Shown: positions 10,515 to 48,449 of the stretch, one piece after another
Layout: every line of letters begins with the position of its first letter
How positions within the stretch are numbered: the first letter of the stretch is position 1
DNA from: Candidatus Woesearchaeota archaeon
GTDB lineage: Archaea; Nanobdellota; Nanobdellia; Woesearchaeales; WAPJ01
DNA length: 48,449 nt
Reading direction: 5' to 3'
Assembly (NCBI GenBank): GCA_047602765.1
Contig: JBLKOL010000004.1
Location: 1-48,449, forward strand
The notes under the pieces: generated by a model
The model's database searches: none
Told to the model about the DNA's origin: nothing
Seen by the model: only the letters and a program-made list of their open reading frames with translations
Made by a program: the position numbers and the translations under genes

Positions 10515-10627
10515 TGGGGGTACTGGGATTCGAACCCAGATCGACCGGTTGCTTCAGGTCATCGGCACGAGGCCTCTGCGCTCCACTACTGGAGCCGGTT
10601 GTACTAGCCAGGTTATACTATACCCCC
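10515..10627 (-). tRNA. trnW: tRNA-Trp(CCA) with 39-nt intron at position 37/38 (intron 10550-10588)
   Basis: Acceptor stem GGGGGTA/TACCCCC, anticodon stem ACCGG/CCGGT with loop CT-CCA-G|A, T-arm GGTTCGAATCC. Confidence 0.92.
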
Positions 10628-41488: not shown

Positions 41489-42418
41489 ATGCAGTTCGTC
41501 GACCACCTCAAAGAGTACGAGACCGCGTTCTCGGGCATCATCGGCCAATCTGAGGCGAAGCGTCAGATCGCCTCAGCGCTCATCGCCCGGCGCAACATCA
41601 TCATATCGGGACCTCCGGGTATCGGGAAGACGTCGATCGCTAAGAGCGTCGCTCGGCTCCTCGCCGCTGACGGTTCGGCTCCGTTCGTACGCGTCCAGGG
41701 TTCGCCTGATCTTACGGCTGAGGATCTTATCGGCGACCTCGACCCACAGATAGCCCTTGAGAAGGGTGCTTCGGCGATCGAAGCCTTCGTTCCGGGCAAG
41801 ATCTTCAAGGCCTCAGGAGGGGTTCTCTTCTTCGATGAGATCAACCGTGCTCCTGAACGCTTGCAGAACGCACTGCTCCAAGTCCTCGAGGAGCGCGTCG
41901 TCACGGTCGGTACGTACGAGATGGATTTCGACGTCGACTTCGTGCTGATCGGTACGATGAACCCGAAGGATACGTCTACCGAGAAGTTGAGCGAGGTATT
42001 CTTGGATCGCTTCGACATCATCACCATGGATTATCCGGGTTCGGTCGATGAGGAGCAGCGCATCGTCGATGCCGTAGCCCTCTCAGAGCACGCGCAGCTC
42101 TCGGATCAGATGACCGGTTCGATCGTGGGGTTCGTGCACGAATTGCGCAGGCGTCCCGAGGTTCTTTTCGGTCCGTCGGTTCGTGGTACGATCGGCGTCG
42201 CTGAGCGTTCTCGTACGCATGCGATGCTCGCCGGGCGCTCAGACGTCACGTGGGAGGACGTGCGCGCTGTTGTCGGCTCGGTTCTGGGCCACCGCCTCGT
42301 GCTCAAGCCGAGCGCTGGATTCGAGACCGCTGCATCAGAGTTCGTCGAACAACGGTTCGACGTGTTCAGTGAGGAAGGGTTCGAAGCCGGTGAAGGTGTT
42401 CAAGGCTTTCGAGTCTGA
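41489..42418 (+). CDS. MoxR/ChlI-like AAA+ ATPase
   Basis: GPPGIGKT, VQGSPDLTAEDLIG, FFDEINR, GTMNP and LDRF motifs. Confidence 0.9.
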   Translation: MQFVDHLKEYETAFSGIIGQSEAKRQIASALIARRNIIISGPPGIGKTSIAKSVARLLAADGSAPFVRVQGSPDLTAEDLIGDLDPQIALEKGASAIEAFVPGKIFKASGGVLFFDEINRAPERLQNALLQVLEERVVTVGTYEMDFDVDFVLIGTMNPKDTSTEKLSEVFLDRFDIITMDYPGSVDEEQRIVDAVALSEHAQLSDQMTGSIVGFVHELRRRPEVLFGPSVRGTIGVAERSRTHAMLAGRSDVTWEDVRAVVGSVLGHRLVLKPSAGFETAASEFVEQRFDVFSEEGFEAGEGVQGFRV

Positions 42419-43541
42419 AGACACGGTTGAATCACACTCGGGTTCTGAGAAGGGCGCGTACCGTCCGAGCGAGTCTGAGCGTTCCGAACGCGAGGAGGGT
42501 ATGCTCGTCGAGGAGCTCGCAGCTCAGGGCCTTGGCCATTTCAATCCTGATCTCTTCTTCGAGAATCTGACGAGCGATTATCGAAGCGCGAAAGAACTCT
42601 ATGGTGAGCGCCTCATCAGCTTGGCTACCGGTGAGTCGGCCGAATACGTCCAGCGTAACATCAGAATCCCCGAATTCGAGAAGGCCTTGCGTGAGAAGCT
42701 GAAAAAGCAGAAGCGCGAGCTCGAGAAGCGCGGTCTCGTCAAGGGTGATTCGCTCACCGAAGCGGCGTATACGATGGCGGCTCAGAACTTCCTCTCCGAT
42801 GCCCTCGAACAACTGTACCGTTCGAGCTTCAACGAGTCGCACGGAGCGTCATCCTCTATCCTTGGTATGCGTGCCGATGCGAAGCCCTACCGCGGCGAGG
42901 CCTACCGTGATATCGACGTGCGCAAGACGCTGCGCAACGCTGCGCGCCGCGGCCATGCGAAGGTCGAGTGGGGTGATCTGCGCGCCTCTGAACGCACGTC
43001 CCGGCCTAAGCGCGAGATCGTATTCTGCGTTGACGCTTCGGGTTCGATGAAGGGTGAGAAGATCGCTCAGGCGCGCAGAGCCTTCTTCAGTCTCGCCGCC
43101 CGGGCGATGCGCGATCGCGACCGCGTCGGACTGCTCACGTTCAGCTCCGAAGGCGAGGTGGCTCATGCTACGTCGACGCCGCTTCCGACGATGCTCGTAT
43201 CCATGGTCGAGGCTGCACCGCGTGGTAAGACGTCGCTCTCCCGTGCGATCAATGATGCGCAAGAGCTCTTCACTGAGCGCGATGCCGACCGCCATATCAT
43301 TCTCATCACTGATATCAATCCGACCGAGGGGCTCAAGCCCGAGCAGGATGCGCTCGATGCTGCGGGGCGTGCGCGTGAGCGTTCGATCACCATTAGTGTT
43401 GTCTCGATCCGTGCCGAGCCGCAAGCTGTTGAGCTCGGTCAGCGTATCGCTGCGATCGCTCGCGGCCGCTACTATGCTGCTGAGGCGAGCGCGCTCGGAG
43501 CTATCGTCCTCCACGACTATGACGTGTCTCGTAAAGGTTAA
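42390..43541 (+). CDS. von Willebrand factor A (MIDAS) domain protein, partner of the AAA ATPase
   Basis: DIDVRKTLR, MIDAS DASGSM, DRVGLLTF and ILITD motifs. Start uncertain (GTG 42390). Confidence 0.85.
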   Translation: MKVFKAFESEDTVESHSGSEKGAYRPSESERSEREEGMLVEELAAQGLGHFNPDLFFENLTSDYRSAKELYGERLISLATGESAEYVQRNIRIPEFEKALREKLKKQKRELEKRGLVKGDSLTEAAYTMAAQNFLSDALEQLYRSSFNESHGASSSILGMRADAKPYRGEAYRDIDVRKTLRNAARRGHAKVEWGDLRASERTSRPKREIVFCVDASGSMKGEKIAQARRAFFSLAARAMRDRDRVGLLTFSSEGEVAHATSTPLPTMLVSMVEAAPRGKTSLSRAINDAQELFTERDADRHIILITDINPTEGLKPEQDALDAAGRARERSITISVVSIRAEPQAVELGQRIAAIARGRYYAAEASALGAIVLHDYDVSRKG

Positions 43542-44322: not shown

Positions 44323-44562
44323 GTGGTACAAGCGATGATCGCTATCGGAGAGCGGACGAACCGCGTCCTCAACATCGTGAAGGCCAAGTACGGCCTTAAG
44401 GATAAGTCACAGGCGATCGAACTCGTCGTCTCTGACTACGAGGCGCAGTTCCTCGAGCGCGAACTCCGTCCCGAATTCGTCGAGAAGATCGAGCGGGTCG
44501 AGAAGGATGGGTTTCGCCATCAGAGCCTTGACGCCTTGAGAGACGAGACTGAGAATGCGTGA
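44323..44562 (+). CDS. Putative antitoxin (DUF2683-like, RHH-type)
   Basis: MVQAMI...NRVLNIVKAKYGLKDKSQAI...ELRPEF; overlaps the toxin start. Confidence 0.8.
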   Translation: MVQAMIAIGERTNRVLNIVKAKYGLKDKSQAIELVVSDYEAQFLERELRPEFVEKIERVEKDGFRHQSLDALRDETENA

Positions 44563-44830
44563 ATCCGCGTTCTCCGATCACCTTACCAAGCTCCTCGCGA
44601 AGCTCTCCAAGAAGGACCGAACGCGCTATCATGCGACGCTCAAGAAGATCGAGGAGATACTTACCTGTGAGAACATCGACCACTACAAGAATCTGCGTGC
44701 ACCGCTCCAACACCTCAAACGCGTCCATATCGACTCGAGCTTCGTTCTGACGTTCCGGTTCGATAAGAACGATGATACGGTCTATTTCTACGACCTCGAC
44801 CATCACGACCGCATCTACCGTGCACCGTAG
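44555..44830 (+). CDS. RelE/ParE/YafQ-family toxin
   Basis: KLSKKD, HYKNLRAPL, RVHIDSSFVLTF and DHHDRIY motifs; 91 aa, downstream of the antitoxin. Confidence 0.85.
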   Translation: MRESAFSDHLTKLLAKLSKKDRTRYHATLKKIEEILTCENIDHYKNLRAPLQHLKRVHIDSSFVLTFRFDKNDDTVYFYDLDHHDRIYRAP

Positions 44831-44931
44831 CGAGAGATCGTTCTCGCTTCGCTGACGCAGCTATCTTCGGTTTCGCTCAGCTGCTTCGGAAACATCTGCT
44901 CTTTATCCGCTCGCACAGCCGAGCTACGCTT

Positions 44932-44953
44932 CAGCGCTCAGGTTTGGGCGCTG
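44932..44953. terminator. GC-rich hairpin downstream of the toxin-antitoxin operon
   Basis: CAGCGCTCA-GGTT-TGGGCGCTG. Confidence 0.35.
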
Positions 44954-44978
44954 TATGGCTTCGAACGATCCGTACAGG

Positions 44979-45245
44979 GTCTCACTATCGTATTGAGATT
45001 GTCTCTGAGACGCCTCGGGACTGGATCGGGACCGTTCCATACGACAGAGACTGCATAGGTGAATAGATATATAAATAACTTAAGAATAAAAGGGGTTAAT
45101 GAGGGGTTTATCGTGGTCAAAACGAGTTCCATCGGAAATGAAGGGGTGGCGTGCGAACGTCTTGAGACTGTCTCAGAAACGTCTCACATTTCCGAAAGAT
45201 TCTTATATGAGTGTTCCACAGATGTTCCATGGAAGGGTTCGGGGA
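44979..45245. other. Candidate replication origin: ORB-like box, AT-rich unwinding element and TGAGAC repeats
   Basis: GTTCCATCGGAAATGAAGGGGT at 45126-45147 resembles the archaeal ORB (TTCCA.TGGAAA...GGGG). An AT-rich stretch lies at 45061-45090, with TGAGAC/GTCTCA clusters on both sides. Confidence 0.6.
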
Positions 45246-45672
45246 TGACGCTGATGCGTCACCATCAGACTTACTACGAGAAATAACCGAACTGAAGAGG
45301 AGCAACCAGAGGCTCGAAAGGGCCTTTGTTGCTCTCTCTCAGATCCTCGAGAACCAGCAGAGCATCCTCAATTCCATCGCCCCGCAGGGCGTTCAGACTC
45401 ACCCCCACGATACGTTGCGAAAAGAGTTCGAGCGGAAACTCAAGCGGGGAAGGGCTTCGATCGTCAAAGAGAAGATCCTCGCGCACCTCGAGCGCGCGGG
45501 AACCGTAGAGCTCTCAGAGCTCAAATTCCTCTTCGTCGACCAACTCTCATACACCTCCAAAGCGTCCTTCTACCGCTATGTTTCCGATCTCTCCAAGAGC
45601 GGTGCGATCGCCGAATCGGATGTGAACGGCCAAACCTACTTGAGCCTTGGTCGGATCGAGCGGACGCACTAG
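45229..45672 (+). CDS. Coiled-coil plus C-terminal winged-helix DNA-binding protein
   Basis: Heptad N-terminus (LREITELKRSNQRLE) and a C-terminal KILAHL...LSELK...SKASFYRYVSDL...G.I wHTH pattern. Confidence 0.65.
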   Translation: MEGFGDDADASPSDLLREITELKRSNQRLERAFVALSQILENQQSILNSIAPQGVQTHPHDTLRKEFERKLKRGRASIVKEKILAHLERAGTVELSELKFLFVDQLSYTSKASFYRYVSDLSKSGAIAESDVNGQTYLSLGRIERTH

Positions 45673-46343
45673 TGGTTCTTGAGGTAGCGTCCGATCTCTG
45701 CATCGATCGCTTCGTAGTCTTCGAAGAGCCGCTCCATGCGCCTGAACCGTGACGTATGGTGGTGGTTTCGTTGTCCTTTCTCCTCGTACTTGAGCAGTTT
45801 GTGCAGGCTCTCATGGTAGACGAGAAACGCCAAGATGCGCCTCGGAGCGCCTCTAAACACTTCTGAGACGCGGATCGTATCGTCGTGGTAGTTGTAGGTT
45901 GCGAGCGTGCGCCTCCCCTGCCCTTTGAAGATGAGGTTCGGAGCGTCAAGAGTTCCTTCGAAGTAGCGCGCGTTCACCTCGTCGAAGATCGATTTGAGCA
46001 GCGGATCATGCTCCTTATCCCCTCCGGTACGGTCGAGGCGTTTGATGAAGTTGTTGTAGAGGTCGATGTTGATCGTCGAGCGGTGATGATCGCCTTCGAG
46101 TTTGAGGAGCAGGTGTTGTAAGAGTCCGATGACGATCTCAGGACTCACGGTGCGCCATGAGTGGCTCAGCGAGAAGATGACGTTGCGTCCTCGTTTGCGC
46201 ACGTTCGCGTTGTAGGGTCTGAATCGTCGGCTGTAGGTGACGTCGAGGATGTAGTCTTTGCCGATCTCATCGTAGAGGAGCGAGTAGGCGAGCTGTGCGA
46301 TCTCGCGTTCGCGACCCATACCCGCTCCAAGCGCTTCGGGCAT
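45669..46343 (-). CDS. SprT/M48-like zinc metallopeptidase domain protein
   Basis: FDEVNARYF, LATY, LVYHESLH and HTSRFRRME motifs. Confidence 0.8.
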   Translation of the reverse strand: MPEALGAGMGREREIAQLAYSLLYDEIGKDYILDVTYSRRFRPYNANVRKRGRNVIFSLSHSWRTVSPEIVIGLLQHLLLKLEGDHHRSTINIDLYNNFIKRLDRTGGDKEHDPLLKSIFDEVNARYFEGTLDAPNLIFKGQGRRTLATYNYHDDTIRVSEVFRGAPRRILAFLVYHESLHKLLKYEEKGQRNHHHTSRFRRMERLFEDYEAIDAEIGRYLKNH

Positions 46344-47165: not shown

Positions 47166-48449
47166 TCACTCCTGCATCTCGTACCGTAGGATCGCGGCTA
47201 CCTTGCCGATCTGATCGAGCTGGTGTCCTTCGCGCGTCTCGGGACTTGTGAGCATGATCGTCGATCCGTACTGTTCTGCGAGAGCGCTGAGCTCTTCGAT
47301 GACTTCGTCCGGGGTTGATTCTGAGAGTACGAGTGTGTCGACGGCTCCCATCTCGAGTTTCGCCTTCACATCAGCGGTTCCGTACGCGACCATCCCTGGC
47401 TGGGTGTTGAGGTAGGTGAAGAATCGGTTGAGCATGTCTTTTTCAGCGGCGATCTCTTCTTCTGCGAGGAGGTCTTGGCTCTTGTCGACGAGCTCTTGCA
47501 GGCCGAACTCATCTGTGTACGAGAGGTCTTTGATGCCGATGATCTTCTGTTTGACTTGGTCGGTGATGTAGTTCCCGTCGACGAACTCGTACTTGGTGGG
47601 TCCTGGTCCTCCGACGATGATGCCTTTGAGTCCTTCGCGGTTGAGGAATTGTTCTTTGACGTACTCGGCGACTTTCTTGTAGTGGTCTTTGGCTGCTCCT
47701 TCGCGAAGCCGAGCGAACCGTTGTGCTGAGTTGTGGACGACGAGTCCTTGCGCGATGAAGCTCTCGCTCGTCGTCGAGATGTCGATGAGGCGTTCTGTTG
47801 TTCCTCGTTCGATCGTTGCGATGCGCACCGGCAGGTAGTCGAATCGCAGGATGGGTTCGAGGGCTCGTTTGACGCTCTCGCTGCTCTCCGAGTAGATGCT
47901 CCGCTCGAACGTGTCGATGCTCATGCGTCGCTCTGAGTTGAAGAAGTTCGAGACGCGAGGATACTCGGATACGCGTCCTCCTGCGGCTTCGATGATGCTC
48001 CGGACGGCTCGTCCTTCGAATGCGATCCGTCTCGAAAGGCTCTTCGTACGGCATTTGCTGATCTTCTCGAGGAGTTCGTGTTTGTCGCATGCGGTGAATC
48101 CGATCGTGTTCGAGAACGTTCGCAGCGAGGTTTGGTCGCTGATCTCGATCGTCCACCGAGTGTTCGAGCTGTACGGGTTCTTCCGGTTGTCGTATGATCG
48201 TCTTGATGCGACGATGCCGAGCCTGAGAAGCGCGGTTTGGATCTGTGCGCTGAGGATCTCGTTGTTGATCCCCAACCCGATGCGATTCGAACGTACGTAT
48301 CCTTCGGCGTCGAAGAATCCGCGTAGGTATCCTGCGAGCACTTCGTTTGAACTCGTGAGTACGAGTTCGGGGATTCGGCTTTCGAGTGCGGTGGTGATTT
48401 CTCGGAACCGGTCGCGTATGAGCCTGACGAGGGGTCGTGACGTTGCTCT
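47166..48449 (-). CDS. prf1: Peptide chain release factor aRF1, intein-containing (5' partial)
   Basis: SAQRFARLRE, IIVGGPGPTK, AYG, GAVDTL and ETREG...AAILRY motifs; the frame is open to the window edge. Confidence 0.92.
   Translation of the reverse strand, partial: RATSRPLVRLIRDRFREITTALESRIPELVLTSSNEVLAGYLRGFFDAEGYVRSNRIGLGINNEILSAQIQTALLRLGIVASRRSYDNRKNPYSSNTRWTIEISDQTSLRTFSNTIGFTACDKHELLEKISKCRTKSLSRRIAFEGRAVRSIIEAAGGRVSEYPRVSNFFNSERRMSIDTFERSIYSESSESVKRALEPILRFDYLPVRIATIERGTTERLIDISTTSESFIAQGLVVHNSAQRFARLREGAAKDHYKKVAEYVKEQFLNREGLKGIIVGGPGPTKYEFVDGNYITDQVKQKIIGIKDLSYTDEFGLQELVDKSQDLLAEEEIAAEKDMLNRFFTYLNTQPGMVAYGTADVKAKLEMGAVDTLVLSESTPDEVIEELSALAEQYGSTIMLTSPETREGHQLDQIGKVAAILRYEMQE
47730..48449 (-). 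mobile_element. Intein with LAGLIDADG homing endonuclease (partial) inside aRF1
   Basis: YLRGFFDAEG endonuclease block, F-block LIDISTTSESFIAQG and terminal VVHN followed by Ser(+1). Confidence 0.9.

Follow-up and report, generated by a model that had tools for sequence, protein, structure and literature searches.

Positions 44979 to 45228 of the window, that is, of the whole 48,449-nt stretch of Candidatus Woesearchaeota DNA analysed here, appear to form a single-copy module of an origin recognition box (ORB) and GTCTCA iterons, the likely cis partner of the adjacent gene, which codes for a 147-aa protein with a coiled coil and a winged helix-turn-helix (wHTH). The module would be a binding locus of the initiator Orc1 that is separate from the main chromosome origin, which in related genomes adjoins the gene for a long Orc1 paralogue. 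We read it, with a probability of about 45%, as a non-primary locus that holds Orc1 or serves in its control. The window is one entire contig (C14) of a 50-contig assembly of 963,730 bp (G000; completeness 69%, 56% G+C), and relatives are cited by similar G numbers. The parts of the module and the adjacent gene are as follows, with positions counted in the window.

44979..44984, + strand: GTCTCA hexamer, the outermost left iteron, with the next GTCTC 22 nt further on
44989..45016, + strand: left copy of a 28-nt direct repeat, holding the palindrome GTCTC-T-GAGAC (45001-45011)
45034..45051, + strand: degenerate half ORB (GTTCCATACGACA) followed by AGAGAC, sharing the strand of the full ORB and found again in G003
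45062..45091, no strand: AT-rich patch (90% A+T), a candidate site of DNA unwinding or bending that lies to the TTCCA side of the ORB and includes TATATAAATA (45068-45077)
45092..45107, + strand: pair of orphan G-strings (GGGGT at 45092 and again at 45103) with no mini-ORB
45126..45147, + strand: full ORB (Orc1 box) with G-string, the sole perfect ORB of the assembly
45158..45186, + strand: right copy of the 28-nt repeat, with the palindrome TGAGAC-T-GTCTCA (45163-45175) and then GTCTCA at 45181-45186, 11 nt after that at 45170
45193..45208, + strand: putative promoter resembling the general consensus of B recognition element (BRE) and TATA box (CGAAAG...TTATAT), 21 nt ahead of the ATG; relatives show an A/T-rich box at equal distance
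45203-45208: TATA-like box of this promoter, with the start codon ATG at 45229
45229..45672, + strand: gene for the 147-aa protein, with an N-terminal coiled-coil helix (residues 12-50), a long basic helix (62-90) and a wHTH with a wing (95-140)

By its sequence the box at 45126-45147 is a genuine Orc1 box and not a chance match. The first-pass annotation had reported an ORB-like box with a G-string, and GTTCCATCGGAAATGAAGGGGT is indeed present there. Its core GTTCCANNGGAAA (the perfect ORB, 45127-45147) occurs once in the entire assembly, and the degenerate ORB pattern TYCCANNGRAAWNNARGGGGT, with at most one mismatch, has one match in the window, while none of 100 shuffles gave any. The box fits the archaeal ORB consensus in print, CTTCCAGTGGAAACGAAAGGGGT, and is equal at 20 of 22 positions to ORB3 of “Ca. 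Methanomassiliicoccus intestinalis”, GTTCCAGTGGAAATGA-AGGGGT (both as given in Table 2 of PMC4153887). The AT-rich patch that had been described nearby turned out stronger than described, 45062-45091 being, of 962,280 positions in the assembly, the only 30-nt segment to reach at least its 90% A+T. The TTCCA side of the ORB is turned toward it, and it is this side too that faces the intervening region in the Orc1-adjacent ORB pairs of G025, G031 and G028. Two of three partial GTTCCA boxes lie where they had been placed (45034 and 45213), and the third starts at 45224 rather than 45223; those at 45213 and 45224 fall between the TATA-like box and the ATG and are found in no relative. A 49-aa open reading frame (ORF; 45099-45248, + strand) begins 22 nt past TATATAAATA and crosses the ORB as well as the repeats, and promoter activity of the AT patch is conceivable too.

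The two copies of the 28-nt direct repeat (44989-45016 and 45158-45185) are 82% identical, enclose the AT patch and the ORB, and are built of GTCTC/GAGAC hexamers, seven of which are found in the module. Hexamers are spaced by 11 nt (45170 to 45181) or 22 nt (44979 to 45001). The palindromes at 45001-45011 and 45164-45174 occur once each in the genome, and nowhere else in the assembly does GTCTCA cluster so densely as in the module (5 copies in 250 bp, compared with 0.43 per kb); a cluster at C2:77 was set aside as coding-looking sequence. With its direct phased iterons, initiator boxes and an inverted repeat at the wHTH promoter, the module is, as far as the arrangement of these sites tells, built like an iteron replicon.

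Relatives of the wHTH gene were sought with a profile from 11 homologues in 401 genomes of the order (Woesearchaeota in the sources; the tallies include some unpublished genomes). The family (125-160 aa) is present in 204 of them at E<=1e-8 and in 56 at E<=1e-28. A phylum-wide search matched 45 of 301 genomes, all from the same order, to which most of the listed sample belongs. Layouts were compared in the 30 best loci, with up to two mismatches allowed in an ORB. The pairing of ORBs with orthologues of the coiled-coil/wHTH gene, which the first-pass annotation had suggested looking for, is conserved in 25 of these loci (23 of 28 when the unpublished genomes G274 and G335 are left out). One to three ORBs stand within -300 to +60 of the start in 23 loci (21 of 28 without the same two), at -432 in G380, whose locus has a run of N, and just 3' of the gene in G007. 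No ORB was found at the wHTH gene in G058, G166, G231 and G049, and G003 has a degenerate one.

The usual order is three or four GTCTCA, two successive ORBs, two or three GTCTCA ending in GTCTCA-n-TGAGAC, an A/T box and the ATG, and in most loci the last inverted GTCTCA pair stands immediately upstream of the TATA-like box. GTCTYA reaches 15.7 per kb close to the start, compared with 0.95 per kb in the remainder of the loci, and 68 of 78 spacings between successive same-strand hexamers are 11, 22 or 33 nt. A GTCTCA directly follows 12 of 43 ORBs. All 20 module ORB pairs that were measured are direct, with start-to-start distances of 24-34 nt in 16 and 51-107 nt in four, and ORB1 lies at -141 to -143 of the ATG in nine loci. 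The orientation of the ORBs relative to the gene is reversed in G099, G390 and G335, and in G007 the module is 3' of the gene. A variant common to the window and the three other genomes searched in its family has GTCTC repeats on either side of a half box, a long spacer rich in A/T and a single ORB, in this order.

Phased pairs GTCTCA-N5-GTCTCA are found genome-wide at the module alone in G087 (one of one match) and G007 (three of three), and nowhere in three genomes of family f56 whose wHTH genes are without a module. The module is also the top GTCTCA cluster of the complete genome G087 (6 in 200 bp; runner-up 2), and in G099 its cluster (3 in 200 bp) is equalled by one other place. Two sources of close-range footprinting were tried and dropped: four metagenome loci were distant (34-43% identity), and a single long relative contig (X7) differs at too few positions (42 of 1678). 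Habitat entries, four of them possibly the source itself, name lake, soda-lake and salt-lake metagenomes (three studies) and are given here as context only, and clusters in Thor- and Bathyarchaeota with look-alike scores of 0.91-0.93 are leads only.

The first-pass annotation had called the adjacent gene uncharacterised, and rightly so, as neither a Pfam nor an NCBIfam family matches the 147-aa protein; its relatives are named in the sources just as hypothetical proteins of Woesearchaeota or Nanoarchaeota. The AlphaFold model (pLDDT 83.9) has two long helices (12-50 and 62-90) and one wHTH (95-140), and the motif SKASFYRY lies in the recognition helix. Foldseek with this model returned generic wHTH regulators (best E 0.017), the centromere binder AspA (5k5q, 4rs8) being among many such matches. 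An hhalign comparison of the wHTH with Orc1 gave no detectable relation (probability 0.55%), Pfam and NCBIfam scans showed no homology to Rep initiators, and no similarity was found to the winged-helix (WH) domains of Rep, Cdt1/WhiP or Orc1, Cdt1 not being among the best 25 of 121 weak Pfam families. Sequence relatives of solved structure amounted to coiled-coil noise. Viral contigs hold no homologue of the protein; plasmids were not searched. Several orthologues carry in-frame stop codons (L009 in G001, as well as G390, G171, G327, G504 and G218), in G001 a TAA that splits the gene into 31 and 109 aa, and may be pseudogenes, assembly errors or cases of recoding.

Orc1 was found in 398 of the 401 genomes of the order. 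Most have two paralogues. The long one of relatives (Orc1-A) measures about 400-445 aa and scores about 430 bits against TIGR02928, the short one about 358 aa and 170-210 bits, and the idea that the module co-varies with the short Orc1 was rejected on these counts. Only the long paralogue has adjoining ORBs, as inverted pairs in G025, G031, G028 and G003 and as a single ORB in G019, G001 and G002, and it is followed in relatives by the PolD small subunit, from a reading of the ORFs. The family of the window's genome includes G001, G002 and G003, all three of which have the long Orc1 with adjoining ORBs. The sole Orc1 gene of G000 (C46:62242-63231) is of the short type, on another contig than the module and without an adjoining ORB; because completeness is 69%, the long Orc1 locus is most simply taken to be unassembled.

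The module also differs in make-up from an origin of the ordinary kind. No initiator gene (orc1/cdc6 or whiP) stands next to the window ORB, the neighbour having no family match. In place of two or more inverted ORBs flanking a DNA unwinding element (DUE), the window has one full ORB and a same-strand half box, and the pairs of relatives are direct throughout. An AT-rich unwinding element does adjoin the ORB in the window, whereas most relatives' ORBs abut without a spacer. The mini-ORB clusters of the complete genomes G087 and G099 are at the long Orc1 (in G087 with a further direct pair about 7 kb before) and at the module; elsewhere, scattered two-match pairs of 1-mismatch mini-ORBs number one in G087 and seven in G099. 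The module is 100-400 kb away from Orc1-A, and from the short Orc1 18-30 kb in G023, G003 and G165 and 120-540 kb in G087, G390 and G099. Module ORBs fit the consensus as well as or better than Orc1-A ORBs in G087, G099, G165 and G390, a comparison that is biased, the pattern being partly derived from module ORBs.

The orientation of the module on the chromosome shows a bias of its own. Along the shorter or same-contig path, the G-string end of the module ORB points toward Orc1-A in seven of eight genomes (G087, G099, G390, G165, G150, G177 and G100) and away from it in G104, an atypical locus. The chance of this split is about 0.07 (two-sided), with four of the eight genomes on unclosed contigs, and the polarity is kept in G099 and G390 despite the inverted gene. 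It could reflect a direction-dependent role, for example fork control or one-way loading.

The skew inflection that an origin at this place had led the first-pass annotation to expect is absent from the module in two complete relatives, G099 and G087. The cumulative GC skew of G099 (1,131,583 bp) has its minimum at 412 kb and its other turn at about 940 kb, the coding strand switches at 438,782 and Orc1-A is at 439.8 kb; at the module (640.7 kb) there is no turn, and the genes on either side are co-directional with forks from Orc1-A. G087 (909,956 bp) has turns at 93 and 602 kb, Orc1-A at 587.8 kb and the module, again without a turn, at 868.8 kb. Skew turns in these two genomes lie 14-28 kb from the long Orc1.

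In the mechanism that we propose for a holding or control locus, the wHTH protein, presumably dimeric via its coiled coil, would sit on the GTCTCA hexamers in 11-nt register, on one helix face and on both sides of the ORB or ORBs. Autorepression would follow from its occupying, in addition, the inverted pair that immediately precedes the BRE/TATA of its own gene. Orc1 would bind the ORBs, whose G-string in relatives often abuts the first hexamer, and the nucleoprotein block would hold it at a site that does not fire, or fires at most weakly or conditionally, and is not the main start site. Initiator occupancy would be coupled to expression of the wHTH gene (together with DUF192 in many relatives), and free Orc1 might be buffered, in a manner comparable to bacterial datA or to the ORB cluster that Haloarcula hispanica has near oriC2, from which titration of Orc1 is suggested by analogy. 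Which protein binds which element, and to what effect on replication, is inferred here. A control locus is placed first because the ORBs are direct and abutting in most families and because two clean skews speak against a firing origin; direct ORBs mostly 24-34 nt apart leave no room for a DUE between them.

Several observations weigh against this reading. On its DUE side the window ORB looks onto the 30-mer with the highest A+T content of the genome, and the four loci with ORB spacings of 51-107 nt (families f53 and f48) have A/T-rich spacers and are origin-like. Because the module stands inverted with respect to the gene in G099, G390 and G335 and 3' of it in G007, the ORBs need no strict promoter-operator role. 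At Orc1-A the two complete genomes show opposite skew polarity (G099 has a minimum there, G087 a maximum), and because of this difference skew is a weak ruler here. In G100, whose skew comes from 600 kb of 1,000,545 bp, the module (379.6 kb) lies within a plateau or local minimum of the cumulative skew (352-388 kb), and Orc1-A (495 kb) is not at a turn. The positive-skew stretch after this plateau coincides with a same-strand gene run at 387.5-424.4 kb; the G100 skew is ambiguous and leans slightly toward an origin. The run (G100:C1:387500-424400) comprises about 36 ORFs, with one opposite-strand ORF of at least 120 aa inside, and a strong local GC-skew excursion of +0.12 to +0.15 in a genome of 30% G+C.

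Among the alternatives, the one that survives best, close behind the holding or control locus, is a true secondary origin of the iteron type, minor or conditional in its use, which we find conceivable but rather doubtful. The wHTH protein would then be a locus-specific initiator or accessory factor on the direct iterons and an autorepressor at the inverted repeat, Orc1 would recruit MCM and the AT patch would melt, making the module a chromosomal counterpart of plasmid Rep/iteron origins or of oriC3-WhiP. The parts of an iteron replicon are all there, from phased direct repeats and initiator boxes to the inverted repeat at the WH gene promoter and an AT stretch on the correct side of the ORB, and the ORBs are spaced apart in four loci, but in most families they are direct and adjoin without a spacer. 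The consensus fit of the module ORBs in four genomes, with the bias already mentioned, would suit an origin, as would the local skew minimum at the G100 module, although the positive-skew stretch of G100 is the same-strand gene run and neither skew nor coding strand turns at the module in G099 and G087. Site and factor are linked regardless of their relative orientation, and most genomes of the order have two Orc1 paralogues, yet the short Orc1 is not adjacent to the module. WhiP at oriC3 (PMC4010727) offers a precedent for a non-Orc1 WH initiator, whereas our protein shows no similarity that we could find to the WH domains of Rep, Cdt1/WhiP or Orc1 and has no homologue on viral contigs. Unlikely too, in our view, is a second Orc1-dependent iteron replicator on Woesearchaeales-type DPANN chromosomes, where a new coiled-coil/winged-helix family on 11-nt-phased GTCTCA iterons around Orc1 boxes would license or gate firing. 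If it were true, plasmid Rep/iteron origins would have their first counterpart on an archaeal chromosome, and the fixed polarity toward the main origin (7/8 genomes) would hint at one-directional loading or fork control.

We consider it quite improbable that the module is a centromere-like segregation site, on which the wHTH protein would coat the phased iterons as in ParR/parC, TubR/tubC or AspA, a motor would pull, and the ORBs would link segregation to replication. Phased iterons do surround the promoter of the binder's own gene, and AspA is among the Foldseek matches, but these fold matches are generic. A ParA-like ATPase gene (AAA_31/CbiA, E 1e-47) is ahead of the wHTH gene in two of 28 loci scanned (G166 and G231), although both are without ORBs, GTCTCA arrays or, genome-wide, phased pairs, and the window module has no adjoining NTPase partner gene. 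In family f56 (loci L087 and L089) the wHTH gene stands between the ParA-like ATPase gene and DUF192, which is another wiring of the same protein.

Still less probable is an ordinary autoregulated promoter, where the ORB-like boxes would be operators of a wHTH(-DUF192) operon, possibly with the short Orc1 as regulator, and have no role in replication. The fixed distance of ORB1 from the ATG across families would suit it, but the orientation of the ORBs relative to the gene flips in G099, G390, G335 and G007. DUF192 lies within about 1 kb of the wHTH gene in 15 of the 28 loci scanned (32 kb away in G000), whereas the presumed wHTH sites are nowhere else in the genome, so that the protein would regulate itself alone, and the boxes fit the ORB pattern that also flanks the Orc1-A origin. 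Contig pieces from two RNA libraries span the coding region, which does not show transcription; among the RNA-library pieces listed none extends over 44866-45314, to which no meaning is attached. Hardly credible is the primary chromosome origin with the wHTH gene instead of cdc6/orc1 that the first-pass annotation had put forward, for although the sole perfect ORB and the most AT-rich patch of the assembly are here and the one Orc1 gene found in G000 has no adjoining ORB, this 69% complete assembly has only the short paralogue and is without the long Orc1 that the three other family genomes searched have with ORBs, and in the complete relatives skew turns and mini-ORB clusters are at or near the long Orc1.

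The module lies in an intergenic stretch (44831-45228) bounded by a toxin-antitoxin pair on the left and the 147-aa ORF (45229-45672) on the right. The pair (44323-44830), situated between a metallophosphoesterase gene and the module, consists of a DUF2683-like gene (44323-44562, E 1.9e-7) and a ParE-like gene (44555-44830, E 0.002, below the Pfam cut-off). It looks like an insertion because the metallophosphoesterase gene, 1 kb away in the window, immediately precedes the module in the f21 relatives. The convergent neighbour in the window, coding for a 224-aa HExxH protein (45669-46343), was rejected as counterpart of the convergent neighbour in f21 loci, the two not being homologous. Further upstream (41489-43541) is a pair coding for a MoxR-type AAA ATPase and a VWA protein, and the same VWA gene immediately precedes the module in G003. 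Between 44100 and 45800, Rfam gave no match better than E 3.9 and ARAGORN no tRNA. Elsewhere in the window, the translation of 47166-48449 (- strand) resembles, on our reading of it, a peptide chain release factor aRF1 split by an intein with LAGLIDADG-type motifs, and a 113-nt tRNA at 10515-10627 (- strand), found by Rfam (51.9 bits) and not reported by ARAGORN, probably contains an intron.

Our literature search found no paper joining ORBs ('origin recognition box') with DPANN or Nanoarchaeota, and no description of the module in print. ORC1 serves only for the rotation of genomes in a 2026 preprint on 208 complete Nanobdellota genomes, and neither ORB nor skew is mentioned there. Replication control in DPANN is unstudied, and a cluster of Orc1 boxes away from the Orc1 gene, with a dedicated DNA-binding protein, would provide a concrete handle on it: the module may represent a secondary origin of a new kind, or else the first locus in archaea that is a candidate for initiator control. 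Its parts are short and defined, and binding is therefore testable with recombinant proteins, without cultivation.

Known systems resemble the module in part. A canonical archaeal oriC (ORB-DUE-ORB beside orc1/cdc6) has the same Orc1 box, and the AT stretch of the window is on the TTCCA side, but the module ORBs are direct, their neighbour is no initiator gene, the Orc1-adjacent origin is 100-400 kb away and two complete genomes show no skew turn at the module. Iteron plasmid origins of the RepA/RepE/pi type combine phased direct iterons of about 20 nt with boxes for the host initiator, an AT-rich stretch, and an inverted repeat where the rep gene has its promoter. The module likewise has helically phased direct repeats, initiator boxes, an AT stretch and an adjacent WH gene with an inverted repeat at its promoter; unlike them it is chromosomal and single-copy, has 6-nt cores at 11 nt instead of iterons of about 20 nt, matches no Rep family and is not on viral contigs. 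In the centromeres parC-ParR, tubC-TubR and AspA, phased iterons surround the promoter of the gene for the binder, a small dimeric DNA-binding protein. The module shares iterons around the binder's promoter and a small DNA-binding protein that is presumed dimeric, whereas 26 of 28 loci are without an adjoining motor gene and the ORBs are not explained.

The datA locus of E. coli, with IHF, groups initiator boxes at a distance from the origin that fires and is served by an accessory DNA-shaping protein. In Haloarcula hispanica, a non-origin ORB cluster downstream of oriC2 regulates the origin, according to PMC4010727. Both resemble the module in having initiator boxes away from a firing origin, and differ from it in that the module, a prediction so far, has a dedicated binder gene.

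For Sulfolobus oriC3 with WhiP, reportedly described by Robinson and Bell in 2007, the likeness lies in the pairing of an origin-type site with a winged-helix gene and not with cdc6. WhiP is Cdt1-like and has two WH domains, whereas the model of the 147-aa protein has one WH and a coiled coil, and no similarity was found, without a direct comparison with WhiP. Also in common is the linkage of replicator and factor, which suggests capture of an element. According to PMC4010727, oriC3 is without a classic ORB or mini-ORB, unlike the module, whose ORBs are classic. For Methanomassiliicoccales, PMC4153887 lists orphan ORBs that lie apart from orc1, together with a second Orc1 that evolves fast.

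A last comparison is with UBP at Sulfolobus origins, which binds the ucm motif and, according to PMC12141716, is an abundant protein of the nucleoid; it has more than 300 sites, and its motif lies within the DUE. It is similar to the wHTH protein, as we picture the latter, in being a non-initiator DNA-binding protein with a specific motif by Orc1 sites, and different in that the sites of the module are limited to one locus and flank the ORBs. The authors of that paper ask whether divergent archaea possess analogues, and the module, with its GTCTCA iterons and dedicated wHTH gene, bears on this question, as it may point to origin-associated factors of their own in divergent archaea.

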